Part shown: in pieces, positions 5,718 through 29,554 of the stretch | How positions within the stretch are numbered: the first letter of the stretch is position 1 | Layout: the number at the start of each line of letters is the position of its first letter | DNA from: a virus | Taxonomy: Duplodnaviria > Heunggongvirae > Uroviricota > Caudoviricetes | Direction: 5' to 3' (one strand) | IMG/VR virus record: IMGVR_UViG_2579778554_000004 | Length of the DNA stretch: 41,632 nt | Notes under the pieces: generated by a model | What the model saw: the letters and a program-made list of their open reading frames with translations, nothing else | The model's database searches: none | What the model was told of the DNA's origin: nothing | Position numbers and translations under genes: made by a program

Positions 5718-5732
5718 TTACCTTTCAGGTAA
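5718..5732. promoter_or_regulatory. Operator-like palindrome TTACC-N5-GGTAA (site 1 of 13)
   Basis: attacctttcaggtaat; intergenic, upstream of LexA box and the 5810 gene. Confidence 0.5.
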
Positions 5733-6070: not shown

Positions 6071-6099
6071 TTGTAATTACCAAGTGGAGTGCTTATATT
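6071..6099 (+). promoter_or_regulatory. Sigma70-like promoter (TTGTAA-17-TATATT) abutting an operator
   Basis: -35 6071-6076, -10 6094-6099, operator palindrome 6099-6113 immediately downstream. Confidence 0.45.
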
Positions 6100-6384
6100 T
6101 ACCTTTGCGGTAAATTTACACCGCACTCCTCTTGTGCCATAGTAATCGGGCACTGGCAAAATCCAGTGCCGGGATTGGTCTCCCGGATTACTAAGTGGCG
6201 CATACCACGCCAGACGTGGTTTTTTTATGCGTATAGCACAGTCATGCCAGAATTATGGTGGGCTGAATGGGGGTCCGAAAGGACGCCGGTACCACTTAGG
6301 CCGGTAAGACCAACTCCGTTCAGTTCACCACCATCTGATTGGTCTCAGCGGTGGTGATGTAATTCGCTAAGTGGAGACGCCATC
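6099..6384 (+). repeat. Left copy of duplicated ~285-nt structured leader (operator, hairpins, intrinsic terminator, pre-RBS hairpin) upstream of the antA-like gene
   Basis: Reverse-complement match to 8848-9131 with compensatory substitutions in stems; begins with TTACCTTTGCGGTAA. Confidence 0.75.
6204..6226 (+). terminator. Intrinsic terminator or attenuator inside the leader
   Basis: ACCACG-ccaga-CGTGGT followed by TTTTTT; alternative pairing GGCG/CGCC upstream could compete. Confidence 0.55.
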
Positions 6385-7076: not shown

Positions 7077-7090
7077 CGTGACATGTCACA
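7077..7090. promoter_or_regulatory. Conserved 14-mer CGTGACATGTCACA (copy 1 of 3)
   Basis: Identical 14-mer also at 27323-27336 and 29541-29554; contains palindrome GTGACATGTCAC. Confidence 0.4.
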
Positions 7091-7372: not shown

Positions 7373-8005
7373 TTAATGCAGTTTATCTTTGCTTATAACC
7401 AGTAGTCTGTGGGTATGCACATCTTTATCACTGCCCCAACAGAAATCAGCCCACTGGCTATAGAAATCATCCCATGATGTCATGAAGCTAAGAGGTCTAT
7501 CTTCTTCAGAGCCATCTGAAACGTATACATTATATCCTGGGGTGTTTATAGCCCAAGAAATCATTCTTTCCCAGAATCTTCTCCCATCGATTGTTTGTTG
7601 CTCATCAGATACAACGATCGCATATTGCTCTAGGAAGAACTGAAAAAAAATCTGAGGCAAACCATGAACAGCACGGTCATGAATAACATTAGGCGTACGC
7701 CATACCATGATCTGCGTACATGTTCTTTTGGCTTCGACGATATCTTCCCGAAAGATTAACTTAACCGCATACACCGTTTCTGGAGTATCGCTGGTAGTAA
7801 TCATTCTGTAATGATCGCCATTACAAGATTTTACAAGGCGATAACCATAAGGTGTTGTGAATCCCGGAAGAACGAAATCAACCACACCTTTCGCTAAGTA
7901 GCTTTCGGTGTGACTAGTGTTCTTCTCAGACATGTTCAGTTTTCTATCGAAATCTGCTTCTGGGATAATGTATGGCATCGCTTTTCTTGTTGTATTTGTT
8001 CTCAT
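7373..8005 (-). CDS. Hypothetical 210-aa cytoplasmic protein, orphan accessory gene (no family recognised)
   Basis: Strong SD GGGAGG before ATG; own operator-bearing upstream region and own terminator; AT-richer than flanks by eye. Confidence 0.75.
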   Translation of the reverse strand: MRTNTTRKAMPYIIPEADFDRKLNMSEKNTSHTESYLAKGVVDFVLPGFTTPYGYRLVKSCNGDHYRMITTSDTPETVYAVKLIFREDIVEAKRTCTQIMVWRTPNVIHDRAVHGLPQIFFQFFLEQYAIVVSDEQQTIDGRRFWERMISWAINTPGYNVYVSDGSEEDRPLSFMTSWDDFYSQWADFCWGSDKDVHTHRLLVISKDKLH

Positions 8006-8131: not shown

Positions 8132-8394
8132 CATCCCTGTGCCGCCGCCCGTCAGAAGAACCCTGCCTTGTCGTTGATGTACTCCGCGTGCGTCTGGATA
8201 TCACGCAGGCATTTGCTCACACCGACGATGTAGCAGAACATGGTGGTCAGTTCCGCCGCCGCGCCCGATACGTCGTGCCCGTCTTCCTGTAACTGGTTCA
8301 GCAGATTCATCAGCAGTGAGTTCTCCGTCAGGCCGAGAACACCCGACGGCGAATGAATCAGGCTGCGGTAGCCGGGCTTCAGCGGGGCACTGTA
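8132..8394. repeat. Inner inverted repeat, right copy (3' end of bro-like gene)
   Basis: Reverse complement matches 6789-7060 with only a few mismatches. Confidence 0.8.
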
Positions 8395-8847: not shown

Positions 8848-9131
8848 AGTGGTTACCTTTTAGTCTGGTTAATCACCACTACCGACGCCAATCGGTTGGT
8901 GGTGAACTGTGCAGGGTTGGCGTAACCGGCTAAAAGGACCCGGCGCACCTTTCGGTGCCCCCACACAGCCCACCATAATACGAATGTGGCCGTGCTATAC
9001 GCATAAAAAAACCGCTTGCGCGGTGAATGCGCCTTTTAGTAATCCGGGACGCCAATCCCGGCACTGGATTTTGCCAGTGCCCGATTACTATGGCACAAGA
9101 GGAGTGCGGTGTAAATTTACCGCAAAGGTAA
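8848..9131 (-). repeat. Right copy of duplicated structured leader, upstream of the bro-like gene
   Basis: Reverse complement of 6099-6384; operator TTACCGCAAAGGTAA at 9117-9131; terminator hairpin ACCGC-ttgc-GCGGT plus A-run 9005-9024. Confidence 0.75.
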
Positions 9132-10000: not shown

Positions 10001-10849
10001 TTATTGTGAAGTTTTCATTGCACGATTTTCAGCTCTGAATTCAAGAACCGTTTCAATATTTCTTTCCTTCAGCATATCCATAACATTTTTATTCATTTGA
10101 CTATCACTGGTTAATAACTGATAAACGTTTCTTTTCTCTTTATCAGAATTTTCTTTAACAGCTGATTTGCATGACAAATGCTTATTGAAATTTTCTACAT
10201 CGCTAGTACATGAATTTACGGCTGCGGATGAAATATCAGACGCTGAAGAAACACCGTCATCTAAACGTTTTATAGCATTTTCTATACATGAGTTAAGGGA
10301 ATAAACGACAACTGAGCGATACCCTTCAGACGCACACCATTCTAAATTTCTTGAAGGATCGAGTGGTTTTACTTCGCTGGATTGAATTAACTTGTCAAAC
10401 ACTGACTTATATTCAATCTGTTTTTTATCTATAGCCCATACCTCAGTAGCTGATTTATAATGCCCAGTATGCTTATTAACATCAAACCCATGTTTTATAA
10501 GCAAATCTGCCCATGAAAGATTTATTGATTCATTGTTATGAGGCCATTTCCCTGTCAGAACCGCCCCCATAGACCCCATATATCCGCCATATGATGGTAT
10601 AGCACCATGGCTCAATAACTTCTCAGCAACCACAGGGCAATTAATTACATAGGAGACGTAAAGCCCATTCCATAAAGCCCCTCTATAGTAATCGCCGCGA
10701 TTAGGTTCTTTTAAGTCGATAGCCTTTGATAATTGTTCACACGTTTTGCATGCATCAAAGTTATCCTTATTGCATTGCAATGAACTGGCGGCTGTAGGAT
10801 TTACAGCGACTATTGAAAGCACAATGCCAAACAAATTTATTTTTTTCAT
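10001..10849 (-). CDS. Secreted protein with possible ankyrin-like repeats, AT-rich moron coupled to the late operon
   Basis: Signal peptide MKKINLFGIVLSIVAVNPTAASS; many Cys; start 1 nt after stop of the 1129-aa gene. Confidence 0.65.
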   Translation of the reverse strand: MKKINLFGIVLSIVAVNPTAASSLQCNKDNFDACKTCEQLSKAIDLKEPNRGDYYRGALWNGLYVSYVINCPVVAEKLLSHGAIPSYGGYMGSMGAVLTGKWPHNNESINLSWADLLIKHGFDVNKHTGHYKSATEVWAIDKKQIEYKSVFDKLIQSSEVKPLDPSRNLEWCASEGYRSVVVYSLNSCIENAIKRLDDGVSSASDISSAAVNSCTSDVENFNKHLSCKSAVKENSDKEKRNVYQLLTSDSQMNKNVMDMLKERNIETVLEFRAENRAMKTSQ

Positions 10850-10850
10850 C

Positions 10851-13800
10851 CTATTTCATCTGCTCTTCAACTTTATTCAGTAATGGTGATATCGCCCACA
10901 GGTTCTGAAAAGGTAGCATTTTACGGACCGCGTGGGTTTGCTGGCTGTCAAATTCTCCGTTAAGTACACCATTCGCAACCGTCGCGGCATCACCGCCAAG
11001 ATCAAAGGTAGGACCAAGTAAAGCACCAATAGCATTACGACTCTGAAACCTTGATACCGGAGGCGCACCAAACATCGCGCCAAGACCAAACCTACCGCCG
11101 CTTATGTTCTCAACGGTATTCAGCGGCTCAGAGAGCCAGCCAAGCATTCCGCCCCGGTCGATCCCCTCTTTCACAAGGTTATTCCAGCTGTAGTCGATAT
11201 CGCGACCGCTTAACTTCTGTTTCATCATATAGACCATTGAGCCAAGCGCAATCGTGCCAAGCGCACCAAGATAGAATGCAGCATCGCCCTGCTGGATACC
11301 AGATACCAGCACCCTGTTATGCTGTGCGAAGATAAACGTTTTGAACTGCGTGATCATCTTCCAGCCTTCTTTACTAAAAAACAGCGGTGTATCACCTACG
11401 CCAGGCGTTACAATCACTGAGTCTACATCTTTCAGCACTGCAGACTGGAAAATCTCTCTAGCGAAACGGTCATCCCACAGATGACTATGCCCGGTTAACA
11501 GCCCGTCCATATCCTCTCCGTGCTTCCCGAATTGCTCCCCGATTCGGCGCAGAACATCTTCATTGATGCCGACCTGTGCCATCTTCCGCATTTCACTTTT
11601 GGAGAGCGTGCCACCAGCAGAAACTTGGCGAGCCGCGTCAAGTATCCTCGACTGCACTATCATCCCAGACCATGATTTAAGTGCGCTGTTCCACTGATTC
11701 ATCAGCGTCCAGTTACCGAATTTCTGCGTCATCCAGTTCAGACCTCGCTCAGCGGCGCTTCTCCGGCTATAGGGGTCAGTAAGATCCGCTATAGCCTTTG
11801 TACGCGTAGACAGGACATAATCAAGCCCAACTGCCATTTCTCGCAAATCCCTGGTTGCAATTTTCACTGAGTCCATATTTTTAAGCATGCTTACCATTGG
11901 TCCGAGAGATTTTCTCAGGCCATGCTGCATCATCGGTCGCATCAGATCAGTTGCAGCGGAGACGGTCATTCCACCAAGCAAACGGAGGAAGTTAATATTC
12001 CTAGCAACTCGCCCGGCACGAACAAAGAAACTGCGTGGATCTTGAGGTGCGCCGTAAGTACCAAGCAGTCGGTCACGCATAGCCGTAATATCCCTAATAT
12101 CAGCCTCCCGTTGCTTCTCAAGAGCTGCACGTCGTTTAGGTGTTTTAGCCTCTTTTATTAGCCGGGTATATTCCTCACTAACCTGACGGATTTGCTCCCC
12201 CATATCTTTACGGCCAAACTGCGCAGTCAGCTCAATTTCTGGTGCCACCTGCCGGAGATAACTTTCCATGATGTAGTTAACATCTGATTCAAGAAAATCT
12301 TCTATACGCTCATCAGGAATAAGCAGCGTTCGGCTTTTAGTGAAACCAGCCCGACCAACGAGTCTCTCTGGGATAATATCGGCTGGTACAAGCCCGGAAG
12401 GTGCGCCTATTATTTTATTCACGATCTCGTCAGCAGCGTCCTCTGCTTCCTCTCGGGATAGAGGCTCCATCTGCTTCAGTGCTCGCTCGCGGCTTGCATT
12501 CAGCCTTGTGGTTGAATTTGCCCGTTTTTGCAGTCGGCGAAGCTCAGAACGATATTTCCGTGGATTATCCAGCAACTCCATATGGCGCTGATAGACAGGA
12601 AGCTCACTCTTTGCCTGCGCTATATCATCAAGGCGTGTTTTAAGGTCAGAGCTTTCTTTCATCATTCTTGCCTGAAGTTTTTCTGATGAAGTCTCGGCCA
12701 ACTCTTTTTCTATTCTTGTAAGACGCGCCTGTGTGTCAGTCTCCTGAGATATAAGCTTATTTCGTTTATCCAGTTCTTCCATGAGTAGAATTTTTTTACC
12801 AGACCATTTCTCCGCTTCAGCGATTTCACTAGCGAGAGCATCAGCGCGCGGTGCTGATTCCTCTGCAGTTTTTAGCAATGAATTTATCTTTTCAATTCGC
12901 TGACCTGCTTTGTCAGCACCTTTGGCACTAATCCCTTGTATCCAGTTGGCAATTCGCCCTCTGAATTCAGTGCGGTCGGAAAGTATCTTATCGAACTTAT
13001 AAATGCGGGGAAGATAACTCTTCGCCGTCACGACATCGATATCCTCAGGAAGGATCCCCAATTCCTGCATACGGGCTTTTGTGGTCTCAAAAATGGGGCG
13101 GATTCTGGCGGCTGCTTGTGAAACCTCAGGAATATCACTCTGATCACCACGGCGCATAGCCATGCCAACAGCTTCATTGAAATCAATAAAGTTCATCCTC
13201 TTCACGCCGCGGGCGCTGACAGATTTGCTGTACTGCTGGTAAGCATCACGAGTAGCTTCCATCTGCTTATAAAGCATGGCGTCGTATTGCTTAATCTTAG
13301 TCTCGACTGCCGTAAACGTAGCCAACCCCTCATCATTTTTGGCGAAGAAATAGTTATTTTCGGCAAGCTGCTGGTTAATCTGACGGGAAACAAGAGATGG
13401 TGATTGCGCCAAGCGGCCAGCAGGAGTGACACTCAACGTTTTGTTAGCAAGTCCAAGTCCAGCAAGCTGTTCCTGATCGAGTGTGGTATTGAAAACCTGA
13501 GCTGCACCAATGCTTTGAGGAGAATCCATACCTCGCAAATGATTACCTACTGAGTTAACCACTGCCTCGCGCGCGCTAGGTCCAGCAAGTAGCTGTGCAC
13601 CAGCACCAAGGATCCCACCAACGAGAGCATCAACAACAACGTTCGATACGCTCTCCATCGGTGAGCGAGCTTCCTGAGTGGCCTGCAATGCGGCCTCTGA
13701 AGCAACACTGCCAGCAGCATTGGCTAAAGCAAAACGTCCGGCTGTTTCTGCAATACGACCGCCACGAACGACAGCGCCGAACGGAATAAACATAGAAATC

Positions 13801-14240
13801 GCATTGAATGGATCTGCTAATCTCATTGCTACAGAAGAGACTGTACCAGCAAATCCCAAGCCTGAATTGTATTCCATGTCAGCTCTCTGCTGATCGATTC
13901 GATGTTTAATTGCCATTGTTTCTTCATGCGAACCGGAGTTGATAAACGAATCTGCAAAATCTTCATAGCCTTTAATATCTGCTGCATCGTTATCAAATGG
14001 GTTATATCCTTCAACCCTGTCAAACTGACTGAAAGGAGCACTGGCAATAAAGCTACCCAGCGTGTTATCTATACGAAATGCTGCTTGTCTAGACCTTTGA
14101 ACGCGTTGATCACTGGTAAATGGGTTCACAGCAGAAAGCAAAGAAGGTGTTTCCATATAGAAATTACTGTCATCAGGTGCTGCTATTTGCTGAATACCCT
14201 CGCCAAGCAACTCTTTAGGATCCTGTTCATATATCGGCAT
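10851..14240 (-). CDS. Internal virion/ejection protein (T7 gp16-like position), 1129 aa
   Basis: Size and position after the 915-aa protein in T7-like order; coiled-coil-rich centre. Confidence 0.8.
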   Translation of the reverse strand: MPIYEQDPKELLGEGIQQIAAPDDSNFYMETPSLLSAVNPFTSDQRVQRSRQAAFRIDNTLGSFIASAPFSQFDRVEGYNPFDNDAADIKGYEDFADSFINSGSHEETMAIKHRIDQQRADMEYNSGLGFAGTVSSVAMRLADPFNAISMFIPFGAVVRGGRIAETAGRFALANAAGSVASEAALQATQEARSPMESVSNVVVDALVGGILGAGAQLLAGPSAREAVVNSVGNHLRGMDSPQSIGAAQVFNTTLDQEQLAGLGLANKTLSVTPAGRLAQSPSLVSRQINQQLAENNYFFAKNDEGLATFTAVETKIKQYDAMLYKQMEATRDAYQQYSKSVSARGVKRMNFIDFNEAVGMAMRRGDQSDIPEVSQAAARIRPIFETTKARMQELGILPEDIDVVTAKSYLPRIYKFDKILSDRTEFRGRIANWIQGISAKGADKAGQRIEKINSLLKTAEESAPRADALASEIAEAEKWSGKKILLMEELDKRNKLISQETDTQARLTRIEKELAETSSEKLQARMMKESSDLKTRLDDIAQAKSELPVYQRHMELLDNPRKYRSELRRLQKRANSTTRLNASRERALKQMEPLSREEAEDAADEIVNKIIGAPSGLVPADIIPERLVGRAGFTKSRTLLIPDERIEDFLESDVNYIMESYLRQVAPEIELTAQFGRKDMGEQIRQVSEEYTRLIKEAKTPKRRAALEKQREADIRDITAMRDRLLGTYGAPQDPRSFFVRAGRVARNINFLRLLGGMTVSAATDLMRPMMQHGLRKSLGPMVSMLKNMDSVKIATRDLREMAVGLDYVLSTRTKAIADLTDPYSRRSAAERGLNWMTQKFGNWTLMNQWNSALKSWSGMIVQSRILDAARQVSAGGTLSKSEMRKMAQVGINEDVLRRIGEQFGKHGEDMDGLLTGHSHLWDDRFAREIFQSAVLKDVDSVIVTPGVGDTPLFFSKEGWKMITQFKTFIFAQHNRVLVSGIQQGDAAFYLGALGTIALGSMVYMMKQKLSGRDIDYSWNNLVKEGIDRGGMLGWLSEPLNTVENISGGRFGLGAMFGAPPVSRFQSRNAIGALLGPTFDLGGDAATVANGVLNGEFDSQQTHAVRKMLPFQNLWAISPLLNKVEEQMK

Positions 14241-16987
14241 TATTTGCCCCCTGCGTATATATTGCTCGGAAGGTAATTGGCTGAACCATAACCGAATGGT
14301 TTTGTCAGATCTGGAGGAGTATATCCATCTTTATTGCTGAACTGCGGCAGCGGATTGCCTTCTCTCCGCACTCTAGCCTCATCAACACGCTGTTGCTGGA
14401 ACTGAATGGTTTGCCTGTACATTGGAGATGTCAGCTGATCCGGCTTGAAACGAACAGGGAGACCATTTTCTCCAATATAATTTCTCGGTTCTATCGCTCC
14501 GTTTGCGTCAGGCTGTAAAACCATAACAGCATAACTCCTATCCCTTGCCGTAAGGCCATCAGAAACAAGTATTAAGTCCGTATCACTGCGAGGACCGCCA
14601 AAGGATTTTGATTTAAGCTCGCGTTTTTCCTGCTCCCACTGCCCCTGTATCCAGTTACCAGCACCATTATTTACTCCGTACAATGCCTCAGGTGCATACT
14701 TCATAACCTCTGCTTTGCCATTAACCGTAGAAACTCCCCAAGTGGTTCTGATCATGGCATTGGTCATTTTCTCAGCCTGTTCTGCATCGCCACCTGTCTG
14801 TACAAAGTTAGCATCGTAAATTGTCTGGTAATCTCGCTGATAGGCCGCATTTGATTTTCCTGGATCGGTAATATCCGGAGACCACGAACCAAAGGAAGTC
14901 AGACTGCTGGCGTTATTTTGTGCAGCAGTTGCCCTCGCCGCGACATATTTTTTGTCTCGCATGGCAGTGGAAAGCATCTGTTTCATTCGGTCATCCTGTT
15001 GGAACACCTGGCTGTAAGCCATATCAACAGCCTTATCCTCCGGCACGCCAGCGCGGGAATAATCGTAAACCTTGCCGTAAAATGCCATCGTACTTTTATC
15101 AAGTGTTGCCGCTGCCGCCGGATTATTATCGAATAACTGACCGTAGAATTTTGCCATCGGGACAACCAGCGCAGGATCTCTTGATGTCGCTCCACTGTTA
15201 AGCATTGTTTTAATCTGAGTTGGTATCATGCCGCTTTTAGTTGTGACGGTGACCAGTGTATTGATGCTCTGCGGATCAGATATGGAAAACGAAGGCGCGA
15301 TATCCTGCGCGAAATAACGGTCTACCGCTGCCTGATTGTTTTTGTCGTTCGGGTCCAGCGGGAAGTTATTTTGCATTGAAGACACGAACCTGTTTCTTCC
15401 CTGCTGAATCTCCCACTCCCTATCCATCTCTTTAAATTTGGCCTGCATTTTCTCCCAGCGTTGCTGGTTAGCTGCAAATCCAGGAGCGTTTGGATCCTGT
15501 GGACGTAAACGTTCAAGAATGTCTTGCCGTCCTTCTGGAGTGAGGTCTTTAGCGGCACCAATGACACCTCCATATTGTATCTGCGCCTGCATATCCTTCC
15601 ACTTCATAGCGCCAATGCGCGGACCATTGGCCCGGATAAAATCGTCCTCAGAAGGTAACTTCTCAGGTTTCAATCCTTCATCAAGGGCTGAATATGCATC
15701 TTTAACTACGGTGCTAAGCTGGTCCGCATACTGCTGGCGGTACTGATTTCTCAGCTCATTAGCCTGCCTCAATGCCTGTATTTGCATTTGAGGGCTCATA
15801 GCATCAAATGCCGCATTGCCCGTATAACGCTTAGGTGAATCAAGGTTAGTTAGACCAAGGGCTGCCGAGATACCAGTTTCAAGCTGTTCGGTGCTATAAG
15901 GCATACTGCCATTTTCGTGTTTAATAATCCCAGCACATAAAGCAGCTAGTGTCTTTGGGTTAGAGATATCAAGCTGATCATTCTCCCCAACACCAAGCTC
16001 ACCACACAATGCCCTAATATAAGCATCAGTATTATTACCATCACTAGCCGGAGCATAGCGATTAACAATCTCGCTAACGGTGTCATAGCCTTGACGCTGG
16101 TAAGACAACATATTTTTACCCAACGCGCGGATTCCATGCTCAGGGGTAGCAAACGTTGCAAAACGTCCATCGCTACCGATCTGACCTTCCCACGGGTTAG
16201 ATTTGCTCGCTTCAATATTACCGGGGTTATTATTACGTAAACCACGAGCATCCAATGAATTACCATGTGATATTGCACGACTCACACCATCAAGATCCCC
16301 TGGCTCTCCATTAACCTGAAGAAACTCGTTGTATTTTTGAGCGATATTTCCTATCCATGCTTGCTGCCCCATTTGTTCCTTGAGCTGAGTTTTCTGCTGA
16401 ACACGCCACTCATCAGGAAGCCCATGCGCATCAGCGTATTGATCAATAGATTCAAATCGCTGCTTGGCTAAATCGACAAATGCTTGGTTATCGCTATATA
16501 GCCCCGCAGACTGAGTGACAGCCAATGCATTTCCTGACAAATACGTTTGATCTTGGAATTGCTGAAACTGCCCAACTTCATATCGACGTGCCTGATTGTA
16601 ATAAGACTGCATAGACTGCTGGAGTTGAAAGGATAATTTATTCCTTTCCTCACTTTCAGGAATTGAGCCTAATAATGCCTGAGCCCTTTCCTGCATATTT
16701 TTCATAACAGCGTCACTCTGACCAAGAGCGTTTTTACCCTGTTTAGAAATCAGCCCATTTTCAGGGTTGTTAATCTGGTCATCTGCAAATTGGTTAAATT
16801 GCAGTAACGCCTCCTGGGCCATAGCAACATTCGCTTTCTGCCTGGCTTCACCATATGCCACCGCATACTGATCTGCGACATTCGCCAGCACCTGACCTGC
16901 TTGAGGAACATCGAAGGTCTGAAAACCACCGGTTTGCACACCACGACTTTGCACCTGGCGTCCGGATGTAGTAGGAACAACAGGCAT
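14240..16987 (-). CDS. Internal virion/ejection protein (T7 gp15-like position), 915 aa
   Basis: Size and position; start overlaps upstream gene stop. Confidence 0.8.
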   Translation of the reverse strand: MPVVPTTSGRQVQSRGVQTGGFQTFDVPQAGQVLANVADQYAVAYGEARQKANVAMAQEALLQFNQFADDQINNPENGLISKQGKNALGQSDAVMKNMQERAQALLGSIPESEERNKLSFQLQQSMQSYYNQARRYEVGQFQQFQDQTYLSGNALAVTQSAGLYSDNQAFVDLAKQRFESIDQYADAHGLPDEWRVQQKTQLKEQMGQQAWIGNIAQKYNEFLQVNGEPGDLDGVSRAISHGNSLDARGLRNNNPGNIEASKSNPWEGQIGSDGRFATFATPEHGIRALGKNMLSYQRQGYDTVSEIVNRYAPASDGNNTDAYIRALCGELGVGENDQLDISNPKTLAALCAGIIKHENGSMPYSTEQLETGISAALGLTNLDSPKRYTGNAAFDAMSPQMQIQALRQANELRNQYRQQYADQLSTVVKDAYSALDEGLKPEKLPSEDDFIRANGPRIGAMKWKDMQAQIQYGGVIGAAKDLTPEGRQDILERLRPQDPNAPGFAANQQRWEKMQAKFKEMDREWEIQQGRNRFVSSMQNNFPLDPNDKNNQAAVDRYFAQDIAPSFSISDPQSINTLVTVTTKSGMIPTQIKTMLNSGATSRDPALVVPMAKFYGQLFDNNPAAAATLDKSTMAFYGKVYDYSRAGVPEDKAVDMAYSQVFQQDDRMKQMLSTAMRDKKYVAARATAAQNNASSLTSFGSWSPDITDPGKSNAAYQRDYQTIYDANFVQTGGDAEQAEKMTNAMIRTTWGVSTVNGKAEVMKYAPEALYGVNNGAGNWIQGQWEQEKRELKSKSFGGPRSDTDLILVSDGLTARDRSYAVMVLQPDANGAIEPRNYIGENGLPVRFKPDQLTSPMYRQTIQFQQQRVDEARVRREGNPLPQFSNKDGYTPPDLTKPFGYGSANYLPSNIYAGGK

Positions 16988-24004: not shown

Positions 24005-24297
24005 TCCTGTTCACTGGCCTCTTTGGCCATCTTCAAATACTGTTCAGGGCAATGCGCCATAACGCGCTGAAACAGTTCCAGCGCCAGATTGCGTTGCCCC
24101 TCATTAAATGCCATAGCCATAGCGTCCATCGGTGAGATAGCGGAAAACACACGGCCTTTCTCCAGCACCGACCAGACAACGCGACGCCCCTGTTCACTGC
24201 TCATGACAAAGCAAATGTCATCAATTTCACGCTGTGCCATGTCACGTTGCTTACGGGCGTTTTCTTCTTTCAGTTGATCGTCTTCGTAATCTGTCAT
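24001..24297 (-). CDS. Hypothetical small head-assembly protein
   Basis: ORF with coupled start and stop between portal and scaffold genes. Confidence 0.55.
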   Translation of the reverse strand: MTDYEDDQLKEENARKQRDMAQREIDDICFVMSSEQGRRVVWSVLEKGRVFSAISPMDAMAMAFNEGQRNLALELFQRVMAHCPEQYLKMAKEASEQE

Positions 24298-25973
24298 TGT
24301 GATTGCCCACCCTGACCACTAACTGCATTCGCCATAGCTGACAAAACACTCGGATCCGAAGTTTTAGCTTCGCTTAGCGTCTTGGCACCCTGTGCCGCCG
24401 CCATCCCCATCGCCATCATTTGTTGCTGCTGTTGTTGCTGTGCCCGTTGCTGGCGAGCCTGCTCAACCTGTTCCTGCGGAACAATGACGGTTGGAGACAC
24501 TCCGGACATATCAGCGAATGCATCGATCGCCTGATCAACGTTGAGTTTGTCGAGAGCTTCTGGTTTCGCTTGCGCAAGTTGACCAATGAAGTTGACCGTA
24601 GACGCCAGACTGGACAGGCCGATAGACTTCTGCGCCTGAGCCATGACGGAAATGTATTCGACCTTCAGGGGCATACCTTCCATCGCGTCAGGCGGTGGCG
24701 GCAGCATGTTTTTACGCACCATCATCGAGAAAGCGCGGTCAATGAGAGGATTAAGACATTCGTCGTTCAGACGCTCCAGAACCGGCCCCAACATCAGAAG
24801 TTTTTCTTCTTTCATTTCGATCACCGCTTCAACAGGCATCGAGCGGGTATTGATGTTCTGCAACATCATGAACAGATCGACAAAGTAGGCGCTGTTAATG
24901 ATTTGACGGGTGTCCTGAATGTCTGCCACCAAATCTGCTGTACTGGGGTTAACCAGATAAGCAGGCCTGAAACCATCCTGACCAGTAATCTGATCGATAT
25001 ACGTGATGTCGCCAGGAAGAAGGGAGGCACGCTGATTCTTGAGGGAAGTCGGAGCAACCATCGGCGGATTGGTGGCTTTATCAATCAACTGCGACTTGCG
25101 CTTCTGGAGAAGCTGCAATGCCTTAACAGGTCCAAGCGCCAGCATACCCGGGCATGATGATCCATAAACATCTTCGCCGTTAACTTCCCAGCGCGGAGCC
25201 ATAATTGGAAACTCATCGAATCCGGACTCACGCAACAACTTGTCGTTATCGCCACCAACCTCGTAATAAACCGATTTGAATGGCTTGTTCTTGCTATCCA
25301 GCTTCGATGTATCGCGGTCAATGTTCGGGTAAACCGAATGCATCACTTCAATCCACTTCTCGTAGGTTCCGCTTTCCCACATGCTTTTTACGGATTCGCT
25401 GACGTTATTTAGCCCGAACTCCTGAACAAGCTGACGAACAGTCATAGAGAACTTGCGAAAACAGGTGTCCACACTGCCACGAGGTGAGTTAGCCAGGTAG
25501 TAACTGCCTATCGGGAATGGCATTGTGCGAATGATGTCCTCGTCATCCTCCAGCACTGCCATTGCACCAGTGCTGTATGTGCCGAGGCTTCCGTATAACT
25601 GCGGCAGCGACTGATAGAGATTCGACTTATTGAACATATCGTTCATGCGGTTCTGCACCGCCTCAAGCCACAACTTAACAGGGCCATAATCCATCATTTC
25701 AGGATCTGGCGTAGCCAGGCGAAACCACGGACGCGCGGGGCTTGTGATGCCTGACATCATGCCGCTGGCGAGAGTGCGCGCCGCCATAGTCCCGGTCGAA
25801 TCAATAATGCGTGTATTGCGTCGATCGTTACGGTTAACCTCAGAAGTCAGAAAGCGGGAACCACGCGGGTTGATGTAATCACTCAACTCGCGCCAGTGCG
25901 GCTCGAACGACTGACGCTCGCTTTCAAGTTGTGCGAACTGTTTGTTCAATCGCTCTTTAGTTGTTTCCGCCAT
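24294..25973 (-). CDS. Portal (head-to-tail connector) protein, 559 aa
   Basis: Size, position after terminase, Gln/Ala/Met-rich C-terminal tail resembling T7 gp8-type portals; GGAG RBS. Confidence 0.85.
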   Translation of the reverse strand: MAETTKERLNKQFAQLESERQSFEPHWRELSDYINPRGSRFLTSEVNRNDRRNTRIIDSTGTMAARTLASGMMSGITSPARPWFRLATPDPEMMDYGPVKLWLEAVQNRMNDMFNKSNLYQSLPQLYGSLGTYSTGAMAVLEDDEDIIRTMPFPIGSYYLANSPRGSVDTCFRKFSMTVRQLVQEFGLNNVSESVKSMWESGTYEKWIEVMHSVYPNIDRDTSKLDSKNKPFKSVYYEVGGDNDKLLRESGFDEFPIMAPRWEVNGEDVYGSSCPGMLALGPVKALQLLQKRKSQLIDKATNPPMVAPTSLKNQRASLLPGDITYIDQITGQDGFRPAYLVNPSTADLVADIQDTRQIINSAYFVDLFMMLQNINTRSMPVEAVIEMKEEKLLMLGPVLERLNDECLNPLIDRAFSMMVRKNMLPPPPDAMEGMPLKVEYISVMAQAQKSIGLSSLASTVNFIGQLAQAKPEALDKLNVDQAIDAFADMSGVSPTVIVPQEQVEQARQQRAQQQQQQQMMAMGMAAAQGAKTLSEAKTSDPSVLSAMANAVSGQGGQSQ

Positions 25974-25987
25974 TTCAATGACTCCGG

Positions 25988-26194
25988 TTACTGACCAAGC
26001 AGCGTTTTACCGCTGGTATTAGCAGTTGATGTGTCGCCCTGAGAACCGGTAAGCAGCGTAGAACTACGACCAGCAGCAGCGCGACGGCGACGAGTTTCTT
26101 CGTCGCGGGCATCAACAACGGCGGCATCCTGCTCCTGTGGTGCTGCCTGAACTTCTGGTGTTGCAGGCACTGATGGTGAGCTACCCATGCACAT
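25988..26194 (-). CDS. Hypothetical small protein upstream of portal
   Basis: 68-aa ORF; preferred over overlapping 25975-26214 frame whose composition looks non-coding. Confidence 0.3.
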   Translation of the reverse strand: MCMGSSPSVPATPEVQAAPQEQDAAVVDARDEETRRRRAAAGRSSTLLTGSQGDTSTANTSGKTLLGQ

Positions 26195-26284
26195 ATCAAT
26201 GACTCCGTACGCAATTAAATTATTACCAATTTAACCACATATGATTTATTTATCGTAGACAGTTGACATTTAACGTGCGAATTA

Positions 26285-26299
26285 TTACCTTTCAGGTAA
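26285..26299. promoter_or_regulatory. Operator-like palindrome TTACC-N5-GGTAA (site 5)
   Basis: ttacctttcaggtaa at the start of the tRNA/moron insertion. Confidence 0.5.
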
Positions 26300-26621
26300 C
26301 CAAAGAGTTCATTCCGGTTACTAACCTGACTGGCTTGTCGTTAAATTGAACAGGTGGAGTGAGCTTTTATTTTGAGCAGTACGGCGTATGGCACATGCGC
26401 CGATAGCGGTCTGGATGCGTTTAAGGGGCACCCTCCCTGGCTGTGGCAAACGAACCAGGTAGCCGGAATGTGCAAGTCGAGCGGTTTTATTCCGCGCACG
26501 GGGATTCACCATCCCGGCGATTCGGTGTGACGCCTCGGAAGAGACGAGGGTACAACGATGAGAGCATTTATGGAGCCGCGACAAAGTGTGGCGCCTTAAC
26601 AGGCTAAGTGCTCTCAGCGTT

Positions 26622-26698
26622 GTGGCATTAGCTCAGTTGGACAGAGCAACCGCCTTCTAAGCGGTTGGTCGCAGGTTCGAATCCTGCATGCCACGCCA
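26622..26698 (+). tRNA. tRNA-Arg, anticodon UCU (reads AGA), CCA encoded
   Basis: Cloverleaf by hand: acceptor GTGGCAT/ATGCCAC, D-arm GCTC..GAGC, anticodon stem ACCGC/GCGGT with loop CTTCTAA, T-arm GCAGG-TTCGAAT-CCTGC, discriminator G plus CCA. Confidence 0.9.
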
Positions 26699-26741
26699 GA
26701 ATCACGCCTAAGGACCGTGATGCCAGAAGTTCCAGGGGCTT

Positions 26742-26784
26742 GGCGGTGATGGTTTCCCTTGAAGGACTATCACCGCCCTTTTTA
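26742..26784 (+). terminator. Hairpin plus T-run downstream of tRNA
   Basis: GGCGGTGAT...ATCACCGCC then CTTTTT. Confidence 0.45.
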
Positions 26785-26861
26785 CAGCAGGACGCCATTG
26801 CGATGACTTCATGCTGTAAACCAGTACAGCCACGGAAGGCATAACTCATTGCTTCCAGTTC

Positions 26862-26886
26862 GCCCGGTTCGCCGGGCATTTTTTTA
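26862..26886 (+). terminator. Intrinsic terminator-like hairpin immediately upstream of the RBS of the 140-aa gene
   Basis: GCCCGG-ttcg-CCGGGC followed by ATTTTTTT, then AAGGTGAGATC-ATG. Confidence 0.5.
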
Positions 26887-26896
26887 AGGTGAGATC

Positions 26897-27319
26897 ATGA
26901 AAACAGCCGACATGCTAGCTAAATATCTAAATGAATGGCCGTGCAAATATGTACGCATTGTTCAGGGTGATGACTCAATTTTTTATGGTGTTTTTGCAGG
27001 AAATGAAATGCTTTGTGAAGCAATTCCAGGTGAGCGACTTGCCGGGTTAACGCTTAGCGATGACCATGGAATAGGAGTTACTTGCCATGACTGGATTTCA
27101 GCGCAGAAAACTGAAATGGAAAAAGGCAATGTGTTTGATATTTCTCGCGCTGTATACGCCAAAGAAAAAAGTGATGATGATTACATGCGCGAAAACTTAT
27201 ACAACATGAAGTTACAATGCCTGGCTGAAGTGCTTAGTAAAAGATCTTTACTTGATGTGGTTGGTGCTGAGCAGGACGCCAAGGCAATCAACGCCGCATT
27301 CGATAAAATAACCTTCTAA
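26897..27319 (+). CDS. Hypothetical 140-aa protein (moron on the opposite strand to the late operon)
   Basis: AAGGTGAG RBS; followed by 14-mer CGTGACATGTCACA and a terminator. Confidence 0.7.
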   Translation: MKTADMLAKYLNEWPCKYVRIVQGDDSIFYGVFAGNEMLCEAIPGERLAGLTLSDDHGIGVTCHDWISAQKTEMEKGNVFDISRAVYAKEKSDDDYMRENLYNMKLQCLAEVLSKRSLLDVVGAEQDAKAINAAFDKITF

Positions 27320-27322
27320 CGC

Positions 27323-27336
27323 CGTGACATGTCACA
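27323..27336. promoter_or_regulatory. Conserved 14-mer CGTGACATGTCACA (copy 2 of 3)
   Basis: Exact repeat of 7077-7090. Confidence 0.4.
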
Positions 27337-27339
27337 ATC

Positions 27340-27364
27340 AGCCCGCCGATTCGCGGGCTTTTTT
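27340..27364 (+). terminator. Intrinsic terminator after the 140-aa gene
   Basis: AGCCCGC-cgattc-GCGGGCT followed by TTTTTT. Confidence 0.65.
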
Positions 27365-28838
27365 ATGCAAAAGGATCATAGTCTGTGATGGCTTTGCCTT
27401 GCTGGTTCTGCTGCCCAGGAATTCGCAGACGCTTCGACACAGGGAAAGCAAACGTCAGCAGTAGCGCATCGCCTTTACCCGGCGAACGCCCAAGCCGCTC
27501 CTTGATATCTTCCTTCGGTTCGATAACGATTTTACCGTCCACACGAACTTTGTACTCTGCTGCCGACAGGTCGTCCGCTGTTTCCTGGTCATCCAGCATG
27601 CCGCCGAGCCTCAGCCATGTCTTGCATGAGTTGAACATCTCCCCACGCTTGTTGAGCATCTGCGGGTCAGTAGACGCGCCACCGAACGGAACAAGTTGCC
27701 ATGTACGACCCCAGCCGTCACCGATTGACTTCAGACCAGTTCCGTAACCGAAGTCGATGAACACTGCGTCAGCCTGGTACTGGTCTTCAAAGTCAGCGAT
27801 ACGCTTCGCCATAATCAGATCGTCAGTGGTCTTGTTGCCAGTCCACAGCACCTTACTGTGCAGCCCCTGCCGCAGGTATATCACAGCGTCATCAACGCCT
27901 GAGTATGCCGGGTCAACGCCGATTATCACCGGAGCATGTGCAACCTGCGCAGCGGTTACCACCCGTTTCATTGCCTCGTCAGTAAGACCGGTAGGGATAA
28001 ACTGCAATTCAGATGCATCAGGGAATATGCCGCGCACACGGATTTTAACGAAGTCGCTATCTTCCCCGTAGTCATCAACCCATTTCTGCAACTGCTGTTT
28101 GTTAGTGCCTTCCACCGTCCGGCTGTCAATCTGCGCAGTTTTCCAGCGGTGTTTATATTTGCGGAAACATTCGCGGAAACGCCCGGTGTTACGTGTAGGG
28201 TTTCCGAACGCTACCCAGATAATCTCAGTGTCTTCGTCCGTAAGCGCACCCTCAGCAACTTCCCACACCAGATCCGCAATGTTCGACGCTTCATCGAATA
28301 CCACGATGATGCGTTTGCGCTCGTTGTGTAGTCCGGCGAACGCCTCAGTGTTGTGCTCAGACCAGGGGATTGCGTCAGCTCGCCACCGCTTGTCGTGCCC
28401 AGGGTCATTGCTGTACATCGCGGTAGCGGTACAGGTAAACCAGTCTTTCGTGATAGCAAGGTTCGACCACTTGATAATTTCCGGCCAGGTCTTCGTTCGT
28501 AGCTGGTTGTCGGTGTTGGCGGTCACCACAACCTTACAATCCTCGCAAGTGGACATGCCCCAGTTGATCAGCATTGAGATGAATGCGGATTTACCAATAC
28601 CGTGACCCGAAGCGCGTGCCAGCATAAGCGGCTGATAGCGCGTCTCTGGATTCTGCAGGTGATCACGTATCTCTCGGAACGCATCAGCCTGCCACTGACG
28701 TGGACCGGTGGCATGTGCCAGTTCAGTCCCATCTTCCCCCCACGGGAACGCATAGAGGGCATAGCCAAGCGGATCGTGAGTGAACCCTGCAATATCCTCG
28801 ATTAACTGCTCTTCAGGAGATAACGCTGTATCTGTCAC
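27363..28838 (-). CDS. Terminase large subunit
   Basis: 491 aa; Walker A-like ARASGHGIGKS; acidic nuclease-type C-terminal half; coupled to small-subunit gene. Confidence 0.9.
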   Translation of the reverse strand: MTDTALSPEEQLIEDIAGFTHDPLGYALYAFPWGEDGTELAHATGPRQWQADAFREIRDHLQNPETRYQPLMLARASGHGIGKSAFISMLINWGMSTCEDCKVVVTANTDNQLRTKTWPEIIKWSNLAITKDWFTCTATAMYSNDPGHDKRWRADAIPWSEHNTEAFAGLHNERKRIIVVFDEASNIADLVWEVAEGALTDEDTEIIWVAFGNPTRNTGRFRECFRKYKHRWKTAQIDSRTVEGTNKQQLQKWVDDYGEDSDFVKIRVRGIFPDASELQFIPTGLTDEAMKRVVTAAQVAHAPVIIGVDPAYSGVDDAVIYLRQGLHSKVLWTGNKTTDDLIMAKRIADFEDQYQADAVFIDFGYGTGLKSIGDGWGRTWQLVPFGGASTDPQMLNKRGEMFNSCKTWLRLGGMLDDQETADDLSAAEYKVRVDGKIVIEPKEDIKERLGRSPGKGDALLLTFAFPVSKRLRIPGQQNQQGKAITDYDPFA

Positions 28839-29540: not shown

Positions 29541-29554
29541 CGTGACATGTCACA
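29541..29554. promoter_or_regulatory. Conserved 14-mer CGTGACATGTCACA (copy 3 of 3), directly upstream of the terminase small-subunit gene
   Basis: Exact 14-mer in the 40-bp gap between the 29550 gene stop and the terminase small-subunit start. Confidence 0.4.

Follow-up and report, generated by a model that had tools for sequence, protein, structure and literature searches.

A conserved pseudoknotted RNA heads modular leader arrays in repressor-controlled early transcription units of enterobacterial phages

The virus sequence IMGVR_UViG_2579778554_000004 (IMG/VR; 41,632 nt, hereafter the window) carries a group of plus-strand features between two minus-strand genes, the portal gene (24294-25973) and the large terminase gene (27363-28838). 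The first-pass annotation of this DNA had described a compact plus-strand insertion against a minus-strand late operon, and that description holds. Megablast with a 1.2-kb query identified the locus as that of a phiV10/epsilon15-like podovirus (Uetakevirus): PAS61 (97.7% identity) and HEMP4 (90.0%) match across 95-97% of the query, and phiV10, TL-2011b, and O157 typing phages 9 and 10 match its first 58% at ∼98% identity. As read from the DNA, positions 26264-27366 would constitute a single plus-strand transcription unit in the order leader hairpin, core RNA A, hairpin B1, tRNA-Arg(UCU), module D, terminator T1, module F, terminator T2, a 140-aa open reading frame (ORF), and terminator T3, with ∼600 nt of structured non-coding RNA between the promoter/operator and the ORF. 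Core A stands out as the most notable part of the locus; neither the tRNA nor the cargo gene is unusual, and both already bear annotations in relatives.

The unit begins at a σ70-type promoter (26264-26292, plus strand) with a -35 element TTGACA at 26264-26269, a 17-nt spacer, and the hexamer TACCTT at 26287-26292 as the inferred -10. The TTGACA and its distance to the operator are kept in all Uetakevirus-type loci, and a consensus scan of 25900-27500 returned a single promoter-like site, located a few bases upstream of the inferred promoter. The operator palindrome earlier noted in front of the unit is TTACCTTTCAGGTAA at 26285-26299, overlapping the -10 and the start site. With up to 2 mismatches allowed, the window contains 17 instances of its motif TTACCT-N3-AGGTAA as against 0.85 expected, a number reached by none of 100 shuffles, and the epsilon15 record has a repressor site annotated at the homologous place.

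Core A spans 174 nt of the plus strand (26378-26551; 146 bits with covariance model R1). It is built of helices H1, H2a, H2b, H4, and H5, a variable hairpin H3, and two pseudoknots, PK1 (GCACAU:AUGUGC) and PK2 (CACC:GGUG). About 45 nucleotides are invariant across unrelated phages; the invariant blocks are UGGCACAUG, AGCGGUC, the 19-mer GGUAGCCGGAAUGUGCAAG at 26458-26476 (GGTAGCCGGAATGTGCAAG as DNA), and GGCG. A hand-drawn structure was tested on alignment A4, which holds 53 distinct core A sequences. In its columns H1 pairs 5-9:21-25, H2 34-36:88-90 and 40-44:81-85, H4 138-141:149-152, H5 170-174:183-187, PK1 14-19:100-105, and PK2 144-147:161-164. Standard pairs occupy 93.3% of the cells, compared with 27-43% when the partners are slid by 1-3 columns. 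Both sides of a pair have changed at 16 pairs (133 cells), and the observed values were reached in 0 of 500 shuffles. Compensatory changes are seen in H1, H2, H4, H5, and PK2, where C-G is replaced by A-U in five sequences; PK1 does not vary at all in A4 and is neither supported nor contradicted by covariation. An alternative RNAalifold pairing of the 3′ strand of H1 with the 19-mer was dropped, since H1 has compensatory changes and the alternative pairs never vary.

The strand of the RNA follows from the same alignment. G-U pairs are frequent (7:23 is GU in 23 sequences, 138:152 GU in 20, 8:22 UG in 10, and 141:149 UG in 9), and read from the opposite strand they would all turn into C-A mismatches, which identifies the plus strand as the RNA strand. 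Indels in H2 and H3 make the core anywhere from 148 to 180 nt long, and a conserved reading frame is thereby excluded. Over 26290-26621 as a whole there is no conserved ORF, only ORFs of 52-54 aa that start with TTG or GTG. The earlier statement that ∼320 nt here lack a credible ORF is therefore correct as far as coding goes, but the stretch is not empty: it holds the conserved pseudoknotted RNA.

A sensitive blastn search with 26290-26621 matched 86 phage records. These include Uetakeviruses; the lambdoid phages cdtI, mEp460, mEp390, and 1720a-02, together with Stx2c and Stx2a phages; P1, P7, D6, and other P1-like phages; Klebsiella phage SopranoGao; and a Stenotrophomonas phage record. The stretch is ∼70-80% identical in P1 and the lambdoids and is conserved more widely than the 140-aa ORF. 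A copy is present in 1840 of 5426 complete E. coli genomes, 554 of the places being on P1-like plasmids, and annotation by PGAP (the Prokaryotic Genome Annotation Pipeline) shows nothing at the E. coli copies except the adjoining tRNA. The 19-mer GGTAGCCGGAATGTGCAAG occurs in at least 120 IMG/VR contigs and in 23 species representatives, all of them Enterobacterales apart from one chance match, an Oscillospiraceae sequence (L140; L numbers designate individual loci) that was rejected as a family member, and one contig that is probably mis-binned. The latter, L152 (JAIIAN010000430.1), is a 1753-nt contig of a 'Bacillota bacterium' metagenome-assembled genome that carries an HK022-type P_L/O_L followed by core A (162 bits), and most likely is enterobacterial phage DNA. 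Model R1 found a single copy in 33 of the 38 sources searched (window included), a truncated copy in epsilon15, none in HK022, and two in L028, where tandem copies at 3998-4156 and 4805-4961 (minus strand) lie ∼650 nt apart with an opposite-strand ORF between them.

Rfam 15 gave no match to 26290-26621, even at E-values up to 10, and no Rfam model matched core A in cdtI and seven related loci (65 kb); the sole Rfam hits in the window were tRNA, isrK, and C4. Full-text literature searches, including searches by the invariant 19-mer on both strands, returned no description of core A, and two preprints that were considered, on the Pas small RNA and on P1 delta-hfq, have no bearing on it. Core A is a new, widespread structured RNA family that is absent from Rfam 15.

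The genomic contexts of core A place it at the head of repressor-controlled early transcription units. Among 136 loci with a sizeable ORF upstream, 74 have a same-strand cI-type S24 repressor gene there, and 36 have the Uetakevirus portal gene on the opposite strand; a smaller set is P1-like. The lambdoid order is cI, terminator, O_L/P_L, core A, and co-oriented early-left genes to int, as exemplified by L048 (cI, P_L, A array, early-left genes, int), and the layout upstream of core A is that of lambda P_L/O_L. In cdtI the cI stop codon is followed by an intrinsic terminator and then by a promoter that agrees with consensus at 11 of 12 positions, whose spacer contains ATGTACC-N5-GATACAT, a motif shared by the O_R sites in the cI-cro interval; other immunity types have their own repeats around the -35. 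The HK022 P_L/O_L region is almost identical to those of L048, L040, and L152 up to the -10. Past the -10, HK022 has putL, and the three relatives have a short leader and core A. No N gene follows P_L in cdtI, Stx2a_WGPS2, or L048, and no N-like ORF or annotation was found between P_L and the yfdP/yfdQ-type genes in the relatives examined. The window, cdtI, and L048 contain no other promoter-like site before the first gene. Each locus has a single copy, and none was found on the cro side in L002, L048, or L158. In P1, core A (71,020-71,199) lies inside the C1-controlled ban operon, 14 nt past tRNA-Ile2 (trnI) and ∼95 nt before ban.

A same-strand tRNA abuts core A or B1 in 48 of 154 loci. In Uetakeviruses this is tRNA-Arg(UCU), on the downstream side, and in P1 it is tRNA-Ile2(CAU), 14 nt upstream; the other 106 loci have no tRNA. 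Core A itself heads a modular array of further RNA structures, whose modules (designated B to F) were read downstream of it in about 40 loci. Module B is a long hairpin of the form CAAC..GAGAGCAUU, a variable tip, and AGUGCUCUC..GUUGUGG, with covarying stems. The window has two such hairpins. The first is the leader hairpin upstream of core A (26300-26370, plus strand), a B-type structure containing GUCGUUAAAU (minimum free energy [MFE] -22.9 kcal/mol, z -2.3) and a candidate RNase III site. It is kept in Uetakeviruses including epsilon15, in whose record the homologous stretch is marked 'RNaseIII', and B-type hairpins recur in related leaders. The second, B1 (26552-26621, plus strand), consists of ACAACGAUGAGAGCAUU, a variable tip, and AGUGCUCUCAGCGUU (MFE -31.6 kcal/mol, z -5.1) and abuts the 5′ end of the tRNA. 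Its stem covaries among loci, occurring as GAGAGCA/UGCUCUC, GAGAGUA/UACUCUC, UAAGAGCA/UGCUCUUU, and GAUGGCU/AGUCAUC. The idea that the hypervariable hairpin tips are immunity-specific, on the P4/P1 model, was rejected: the window, cdtI, and a Klebsiella Uetakevirus share the B1 tip and differ in their operators.

Module C is a tRNA-like domain. It starts with GUGGUGAA, continues with a D-like hairpin, a variable insert, and a T-like hairpin (GCCGG-AGAUCAGCA-CCGGC), and ends in CACCAC; an acceptor-like stem is present, and the D-like and T-like loops are complementary and covary (GCUGAU/AUCAGC). It was seen in L002 (4242-4350), L009, L017, L059, L148, and others, with inserts of 25-150 nt. In the window, the tRNA-Arg sits exactly in the slot that this domain occupies in relatives, and both begin with GUGG directly after ..CGUU. 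Module D follows as the hairpin AUCACGCCUAAGGACCGUGAU (26701-26721, plus strand), present in more than 120 viral contigs and recovered in alignment fold A7; the family form is AUCACGCCUUAGGACCGUGAU. Among 127 module D loci with enough upstream sequence, mostly from related Uetakeviruses, all have core A (123 full-length and 4 partial).

Module E corresponds to T1 (26740-26785, plus strand) and is composed of UUGGCGGU, a stem, ACCGCC, and CUUUUUACA, with covariation in the upper stem. The flank GCYC(Y)UUUU(Y)ACA accompanies T1 in 77 of 126 arrays and in none on the reverse strand. Module F (26781-26857, plus strand; MFE -12.2 kcal/mol, z -2.8) contains two conserved hairpins, UUUACAGCAG...CUGCUGUAAA at 26781-26820 and GGAAGG...CUUCC at 26834-26856; both bases of pair 114:133 of A7 are replaced in 5 of 12 sequences. 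Relatives carry further hairpins beyond module E, and in Uetakeviruses also T2. A strong intrinsic terminator lies within 450 nt of core A in 91 of 123 distinct contexts (median 251 nt). In L090 a hairpin right after core A (3343-3378) is followed by TGCTCTTTAACAA, an exact match to the rrn boxA consensus and the only such case among the 126 arrays; an rrn-type boxA was therefore rejected as a general feature, the common T1 flank being just loosely boxA-like.

Some arrays have a different head. The P_L leader of phage LLS begins with a small promoter-proximal pseudoknot, Z (CCACCGCGCCUGAUGUGG..CAGGC), followed by B, C, E, and more hairpins, and contains no core A, though core A would be expected there. 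Z, in the form CCACCGAGCCUGAUGUGG..CAGGC, heads most of the related leaders that lack core A; it was found at ∼8210-8265 on the minus strand of L250 (LLS), in L251, L256, and L263-L266, and at 3118-3160 in L090, and in one variant GCCUG:CAGGC has become GCCCGG:CCGGGC. Apparently, this pseudoknot is likewise undescribed. Scanning viral contigs with the module E motif gave 69 distinct real arrays, of which 39 have Z only, 11 A only, 5 both, and 14 neither; Z is thus present in 5 of the 16 arrays with A and in 39 of the 53 without. Epsilon15 (L004, 2547-2700) has undergone a deletion between two 13-nt TTCCCTTGATGCT repeats, of which the first belongs to the core A H2 loop and the second to the loop of T1. 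Module B, the tRNA, D, half of T1, and the 3′ portion of A, most of the array, have been lost, and T2 and the cargo gene remain; the H2 and T1 loops share TTCCCTTGATGCT in Salmonella-type copies. Unannotated gaps of ∼630-780 nt between the repressor gene and the first early-left gene of curated genomes also proved to be RNA arrays (L158, the Stx2a phage WGPS2, 2848-3625; L250, 7732-8359).

The tRNA-Arg(UCU) gene itself (26622-26698, plus strand; CCA encoded) is genuine, as had been proposed: ARAGORN and the Rfam tRNA model (RF00005; 73.3 bits, gathering score 29) both accept it, and a tRNA-Arg is annotated at the homologous place in related phage records and by PGAP. The sequence has the UCU anticodon, the 3′ CCA, and A20 and C35, which are identity elements for arginyl-tRNA synthetase. 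Given that it occupies the slot of the relatives' tRNA-like domain, it probably also serves as an RNA-processing signal. The view that it compensates for rare codons in the late genes proved only partly right. The 58 crude ORFs of the window contain 7.4 AGA and 5.9 AGG per 1000 codons; E. coli averages roughly 2 and 1, respectively, so that the phage uses these codons roughly 3-5 times as often as is typical of E. coli. However, AGA is absent from the neighboring portal, capsid, scaffold, and terminase genes. It clusters instead in 3151-5613 (13 codons), 7373-8005 (10 of 14 Arg codons), and 10001-16987, and the tRNA may help accessory, tail, and early genes. The share of AGA in the 210-aa ORF at 7373-8005 (minus strand) is far above that of any other gene in the window; this ORF was probably acquired recently and would depend on the phage tRNA-Arg(UCU).

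Three sites fit the form of an intrinsic terminator, a G+C-rich hairpin followed by a U run, and correspond to the two hairpins before the 140-aa gene and the terminator at the terminase stop that had been predicted. T1 has a hairpin of 14 pairs at 26742-26777 followed by CTTTTT (plus strand; -22.8 kcal/mol, z -6.5). T2 (26860-26885, plus strand), identified by terminator scan and folding energy, consists of GCCCGGUUCGCCGGGC and then AUUUUUUU; its hairpin at 26862-26877 is followed by ATTTTTTT (-12.7 kcal/mol, z -3.4), which ends 11 nt before the ATG. T3 (27338-27366, plus strand) has a hairpin at 27340-27359 followed by TTTTT (-13.7 kcal/mol, z -3.4), closes the plus-strand unit, and overlaps the terminase stop codon. 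The ribosome-binding site (RBS) AAGGTGA and the 140-aa ORF (26886-27319; ORF 26897-27319, plus strand) come directly behind T2, in agreement with the first-pass annotation, and the scan of 25900-27500 located no promoter-like site between T1/T2 and the ORF. With the ORF directly behind two terminators and no promoter-like site between, the earlier suggestion that it is expressed by conditional read-through is a reasonable one on this layout.

The 140-aa gene is not an orphan, as it had been called. Its product, a conserved hypothetical protein, matches PHROG 4846 over the full profile length (residues 1-140, E-value 7.7e-87), and a search of 5.8 billion proteins found homologues in 111 clusters from Escherichia, Salmonella, Citrobacter, Klebsiella, Enterobacter, and Hafnia, all named hypothetical. 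There was no Pfam domain match. An AlphaFold2 model (predicted local distance difference test score 77) had no PDB fold match at E < 0.001 and matched BFVD entries only weakly, all of them uncharacterized phage proteins. The T2-RBS-ATG junction is conserved across relatives, with unrelated genes filling the slot downstream, which behaves as an exchangeable cargo position. A 12-nt direct repeat, AGCAGGACGCCA, at the start of module F (26786-26797) and near the 3′ end of the ORF (27270-27281) may be due to chance or be a recombination scar of cargo exchange. Between the ORF and T3 lies the palindrome GTGACATGTCAC (27324-27335), which accounts for the previously reported conserved 14-mer and could be a regulator site. 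It has three exact copies in the window as against 0.09 expected (7078-7089, 27324-27335, and 29542-29553) and a further one with one mismatch at 24234; the copies lie at gene ends and just upstream of the small-terminase gene.

Operator-like TTACC-N5-GGTAA sequences are spread over the genome, for example at 5718, 6099, 8065, 9117, 26285, 33470, 33532, 35434, 35819, 36531, and 36593, which recalls the many scattered C1 operators of P1. Two isrK plus C4-antisense RNA pairs (6150-6335, plus strand; 8895-9080, minus strand; Rfam 61-78 bits) each lie directly downstream of a copy (6099-6113 and 9117-9131), a layout like the RNA immunity system of P1 immI that occurs twice in the window.

The reading that we tentatively put first, while stopping short of calling it probable, is that core A is a cis-acting element similar to put that lets RNA polymerase pass T1 and T2 before the 140-aa gene. 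When the repressor leaves its operator on infection or induction, polymerase would transcribe core A first; the RNA would fold on the nascent transcript and act in cis on the elongating polymerase, as HK022 putL does. The modified polymerase would then pass T1, T2, and Rho acting on the long untranslated leader and reach the cargo gene, or in the lambdoid relatives the whole early-left operon, and transcripts begun at other promoters would stop at T1 or T2. Cleavage by RNase P at the 5′ end of the tRNA, and probably by RNase III at the flanking long hairpins, would cut the leader into pieces and free a functional tRNA-Arg(UCU) to supplement decoding of the AGA-rich accessory genes. The put RNA, which acts in cis on polymerase, still acts once cut from the transcript (PMC9378689). 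We rank this reading first because core A replaces putL exactly by position in phages that lack N, because terminators precede the first genes without a second promoter, because the terminator-RBS junction is conserved before variable cargo, and because core A and Z partially exclude one another. Antitermination by core A is inferred only from its position.

Several observations weigh against antitermination. Core A is optional: LLS and 53 of the 69 arrays keep B, C, and E, terminator included, without it, and its absence from LLS lowers our confidence in this model. Having lost most of A and half of T1, epsilon15 kept T2 and the cargo gene. There is no second copy on the P_R side, unlike putR, and core A and put share neither sequence nor fold. 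If antitermination is processive, T3 of the window would be weakened as well, and polymerase would run head-on into the terminase genes. In P1, core A stands in the middle of an operon with no terminator before ban, and CRISPR interference (CRISPRi) knock-down of trnI and ban at that locus left plaque formation unaffected (PMC10695390). Finally, the processing-type signals that flank A fit a released stand-alone RNA equally well.

Such a stand-alone RNA is the strongest rival. Core A, with B1, would be cut free by RNase III-type hairpins and RNase P as a stable trans-acting RNA with a conserved host partner such as polymerase, the ribosome, a ribonuclease, or a defense protein, which it would bind early in development. 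The early transcript would amount to a small 'RNA operon', T1 would then be the end of the RNA gene, and the cargo gene would receive leaky read-through only. We consider this nearly as likely as put-like antitermination because of the flanking processing modules, the exchange of tRNA and tRNA-like domain, the portability of core A, and its optional presence beside retained terminators. The same-strand tRNA that abuts A or B1 in 48 loci, the covarying tRNA-like domain that holds the slot elsewhere, the occurrence of A in four unrelated genome contexts, and the conservation of T1 as part of the unit all fit a released RNA, and the ∼45 nucleotides that are invariant across unrelated phages suggest one conserved host partner. 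There is also precedent: RNase P matures the C4 RNAs of P1 and P7 and the CI RNA of P4 out of the opening stretch of transcripts that a repressor controls, and C4 and isrK homologues stand behind the same operator elsewhere in the window. On the other hand, the array has no excess base complementarity to the rest of the phage, with 10 matches of 11 nt against 10.8 expected from shuffles, and antisense targets there were rejected; the processing is itself read from sequence; and the hypothesis leaves unexplained the lambdoid early-left genes that lie behind the unit's terminator without any other promoter.

Core A is unlikely to be a riboswitch-like sensor of a ligand or factor that decides termination at T1 and T2 and so makes read-through conditional. 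Its compact pseudoknotted fold with invariant junction nucleotides, and the terminators downstream, with the U-tract of T2 touching the RBS, have the right appearance, but the first terminator stands ∼70 nt from A in some loci and more than 600 nt from it in others, and exchangeable modules, or even an ORF, may intervene, so that no overlapping expression platform is evident; moreover, P1 has A without a terminator, and no known riboswitch model matches. It is very improbable that the locus is a plain insertion of a tRNA and a moron in which the 320 nt consist of promoter, leader, and spacer and have no separate function. Transfer RNA genes and morons are common in phages, and in GenBank and PGAP annotation the tRNA and the ORF are the only features of the locus, but this view is contradicted by the wider conservation of the stretch than of the ORF, by its compensatory base changes, and by its occurrence without a tRNA in the majority of loci (106 of 154). 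A function on the minus strand, as an RNase III site or leader in the late mRNA between terminase and portal, is equally hard to credit: the epsilon15 record does place 'RNaseIII' and an integration host factor site here on the late-gene strand, which also folds stably (z -4.1), but the many conserved G-U pairs would become C-A mismatches, and the tRNA, ban, cI, and early-left genes that accompany the element in P1 and the lambdoids all point the same way as it does. Small proteins can practically be dismissed, for although two plus-strand ORFs exist (52 aa, 26372-26530; 54 aa, 26443-26607), they start with TTG and GTG without an RBS, the length changes of homologues in H2 and H3 (cores of 148-180 nt) are not divisible by three, and the substitution pattern is that of paired RNA.

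To return to the put-like element, it is possible, although we hold this wider proposal with some doubt, that core A represents a new class of polymerase-modifying antiterminator, unrelated to put yet equivalent in function, and is the missing early device of N-less lambdoids, including Stx2-converting phages. In a broader sense it would be one interchangeable head module, along with putL and Z, of a hitherto unrecognized system of long, shuffled modular leaders. P1 and Uetakeviruses may use the same device, in leaders that may shuffle RNase III-type hairpins, tRNA-like domains, and terminators. The authors of the LLS genome noted the absence of N, raised the question of how terminators are passed in an early-left operon without N or put, and suggested that N-less lambdoids whose early-left operon is of the yfdP/yfdQ kind have an RNA like put (PMC12315714); core A is a concrete candidate. 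If core A is cut free and acts in trans, phages would be making a new, abundant RNA aimed at a conserved target in the host. With either function, core A is carried by about one third of complete E. coli genomes, by P1, and by Stx2a- and Stx2c-converting phages, and yet is unannotated; annotation 'gaps' of 0.5-1 kb in thousands of prophages are modular RNA arrays; and the exchange of a true tRNA and a tRNA-like domain at one locus bears on why phages carry tRNAs.

The closest known counterpart by position is put of HK022, which like core A is the first-transcribed RNA at a repressor-controlled early promoter of an N-less lambdoid, with terminators following; in phages with an HK022-type P_L/O_L, core A stands in the place of putL. 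The put RNA is ∼70 nt long with two stem-loops (PMC9378689). Core A differs in having 150-180 nt, five helices, and two pseudoknots, and has no similarity to put in sequence or structure; homology to putL was rejected, as the alignment diverges right past the -10 and R1 gives no hit in HK022. A further difference is that HK022 has a put copy in both the P_L and P_R operons, whereas core A is single-copy with no P_R-side partner, and that core A also occurs in P1, Uetakeviruses, and a Lastavirus. The N/nut system of lambda shares with core A its map position at the start of the P_L transcript. However, nut sites are short, with a boxA and a 15-nt hairpin, the core A relatives examined lack N after P_L, and a canonical boxA is found in one locus, L090.

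Other known elements resemble parts of the unit. T4 and Stx phages likewise encode a genuine tRNA-Arg(UCU) that reads the rare AGA codon, and AGA use in the phage of the window is above the host average; the window copy differs in forming part of an array of structured RNAs, where it fills the place of a tRNA-like domain, and in having highly expressed head genes without AGA as its neighbors. GOLLD and ROOL are ornate prophage-carried non-coding RNAs, often next to tRNA genes, and in this respect resemble core A, but they are 3-5 times larger and are found in other bacterial groups; both are in Rfam 15, and neither matches core A. Transcripts under repressor control yield C4, CI RNA, and isrK as their first products, each matured by RNase P, and core A shares with all three its place at the head of such a transcript; as noted above, two isrK-C4 units stand behind the same operator in the window. 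These RNAs are antisense regulators of ∼77-87 nt with known targets, whereas no antisense target was found for the window array, and the C4 and isrK models hit 6150-6335 and 8895-9080 rather than the core A locus. Finally, the direct succession of a non-coding RNA and a tRNA or tRNA-like fold recalls 3′ETS-leuZ (a 3′ external transcribed spacer) of E. coli and MALAT1-mascRNA of mammals; by this analogy, RNase P would set the 3′ end of the non-coding RNA, as part of a putative processing of the array described here.

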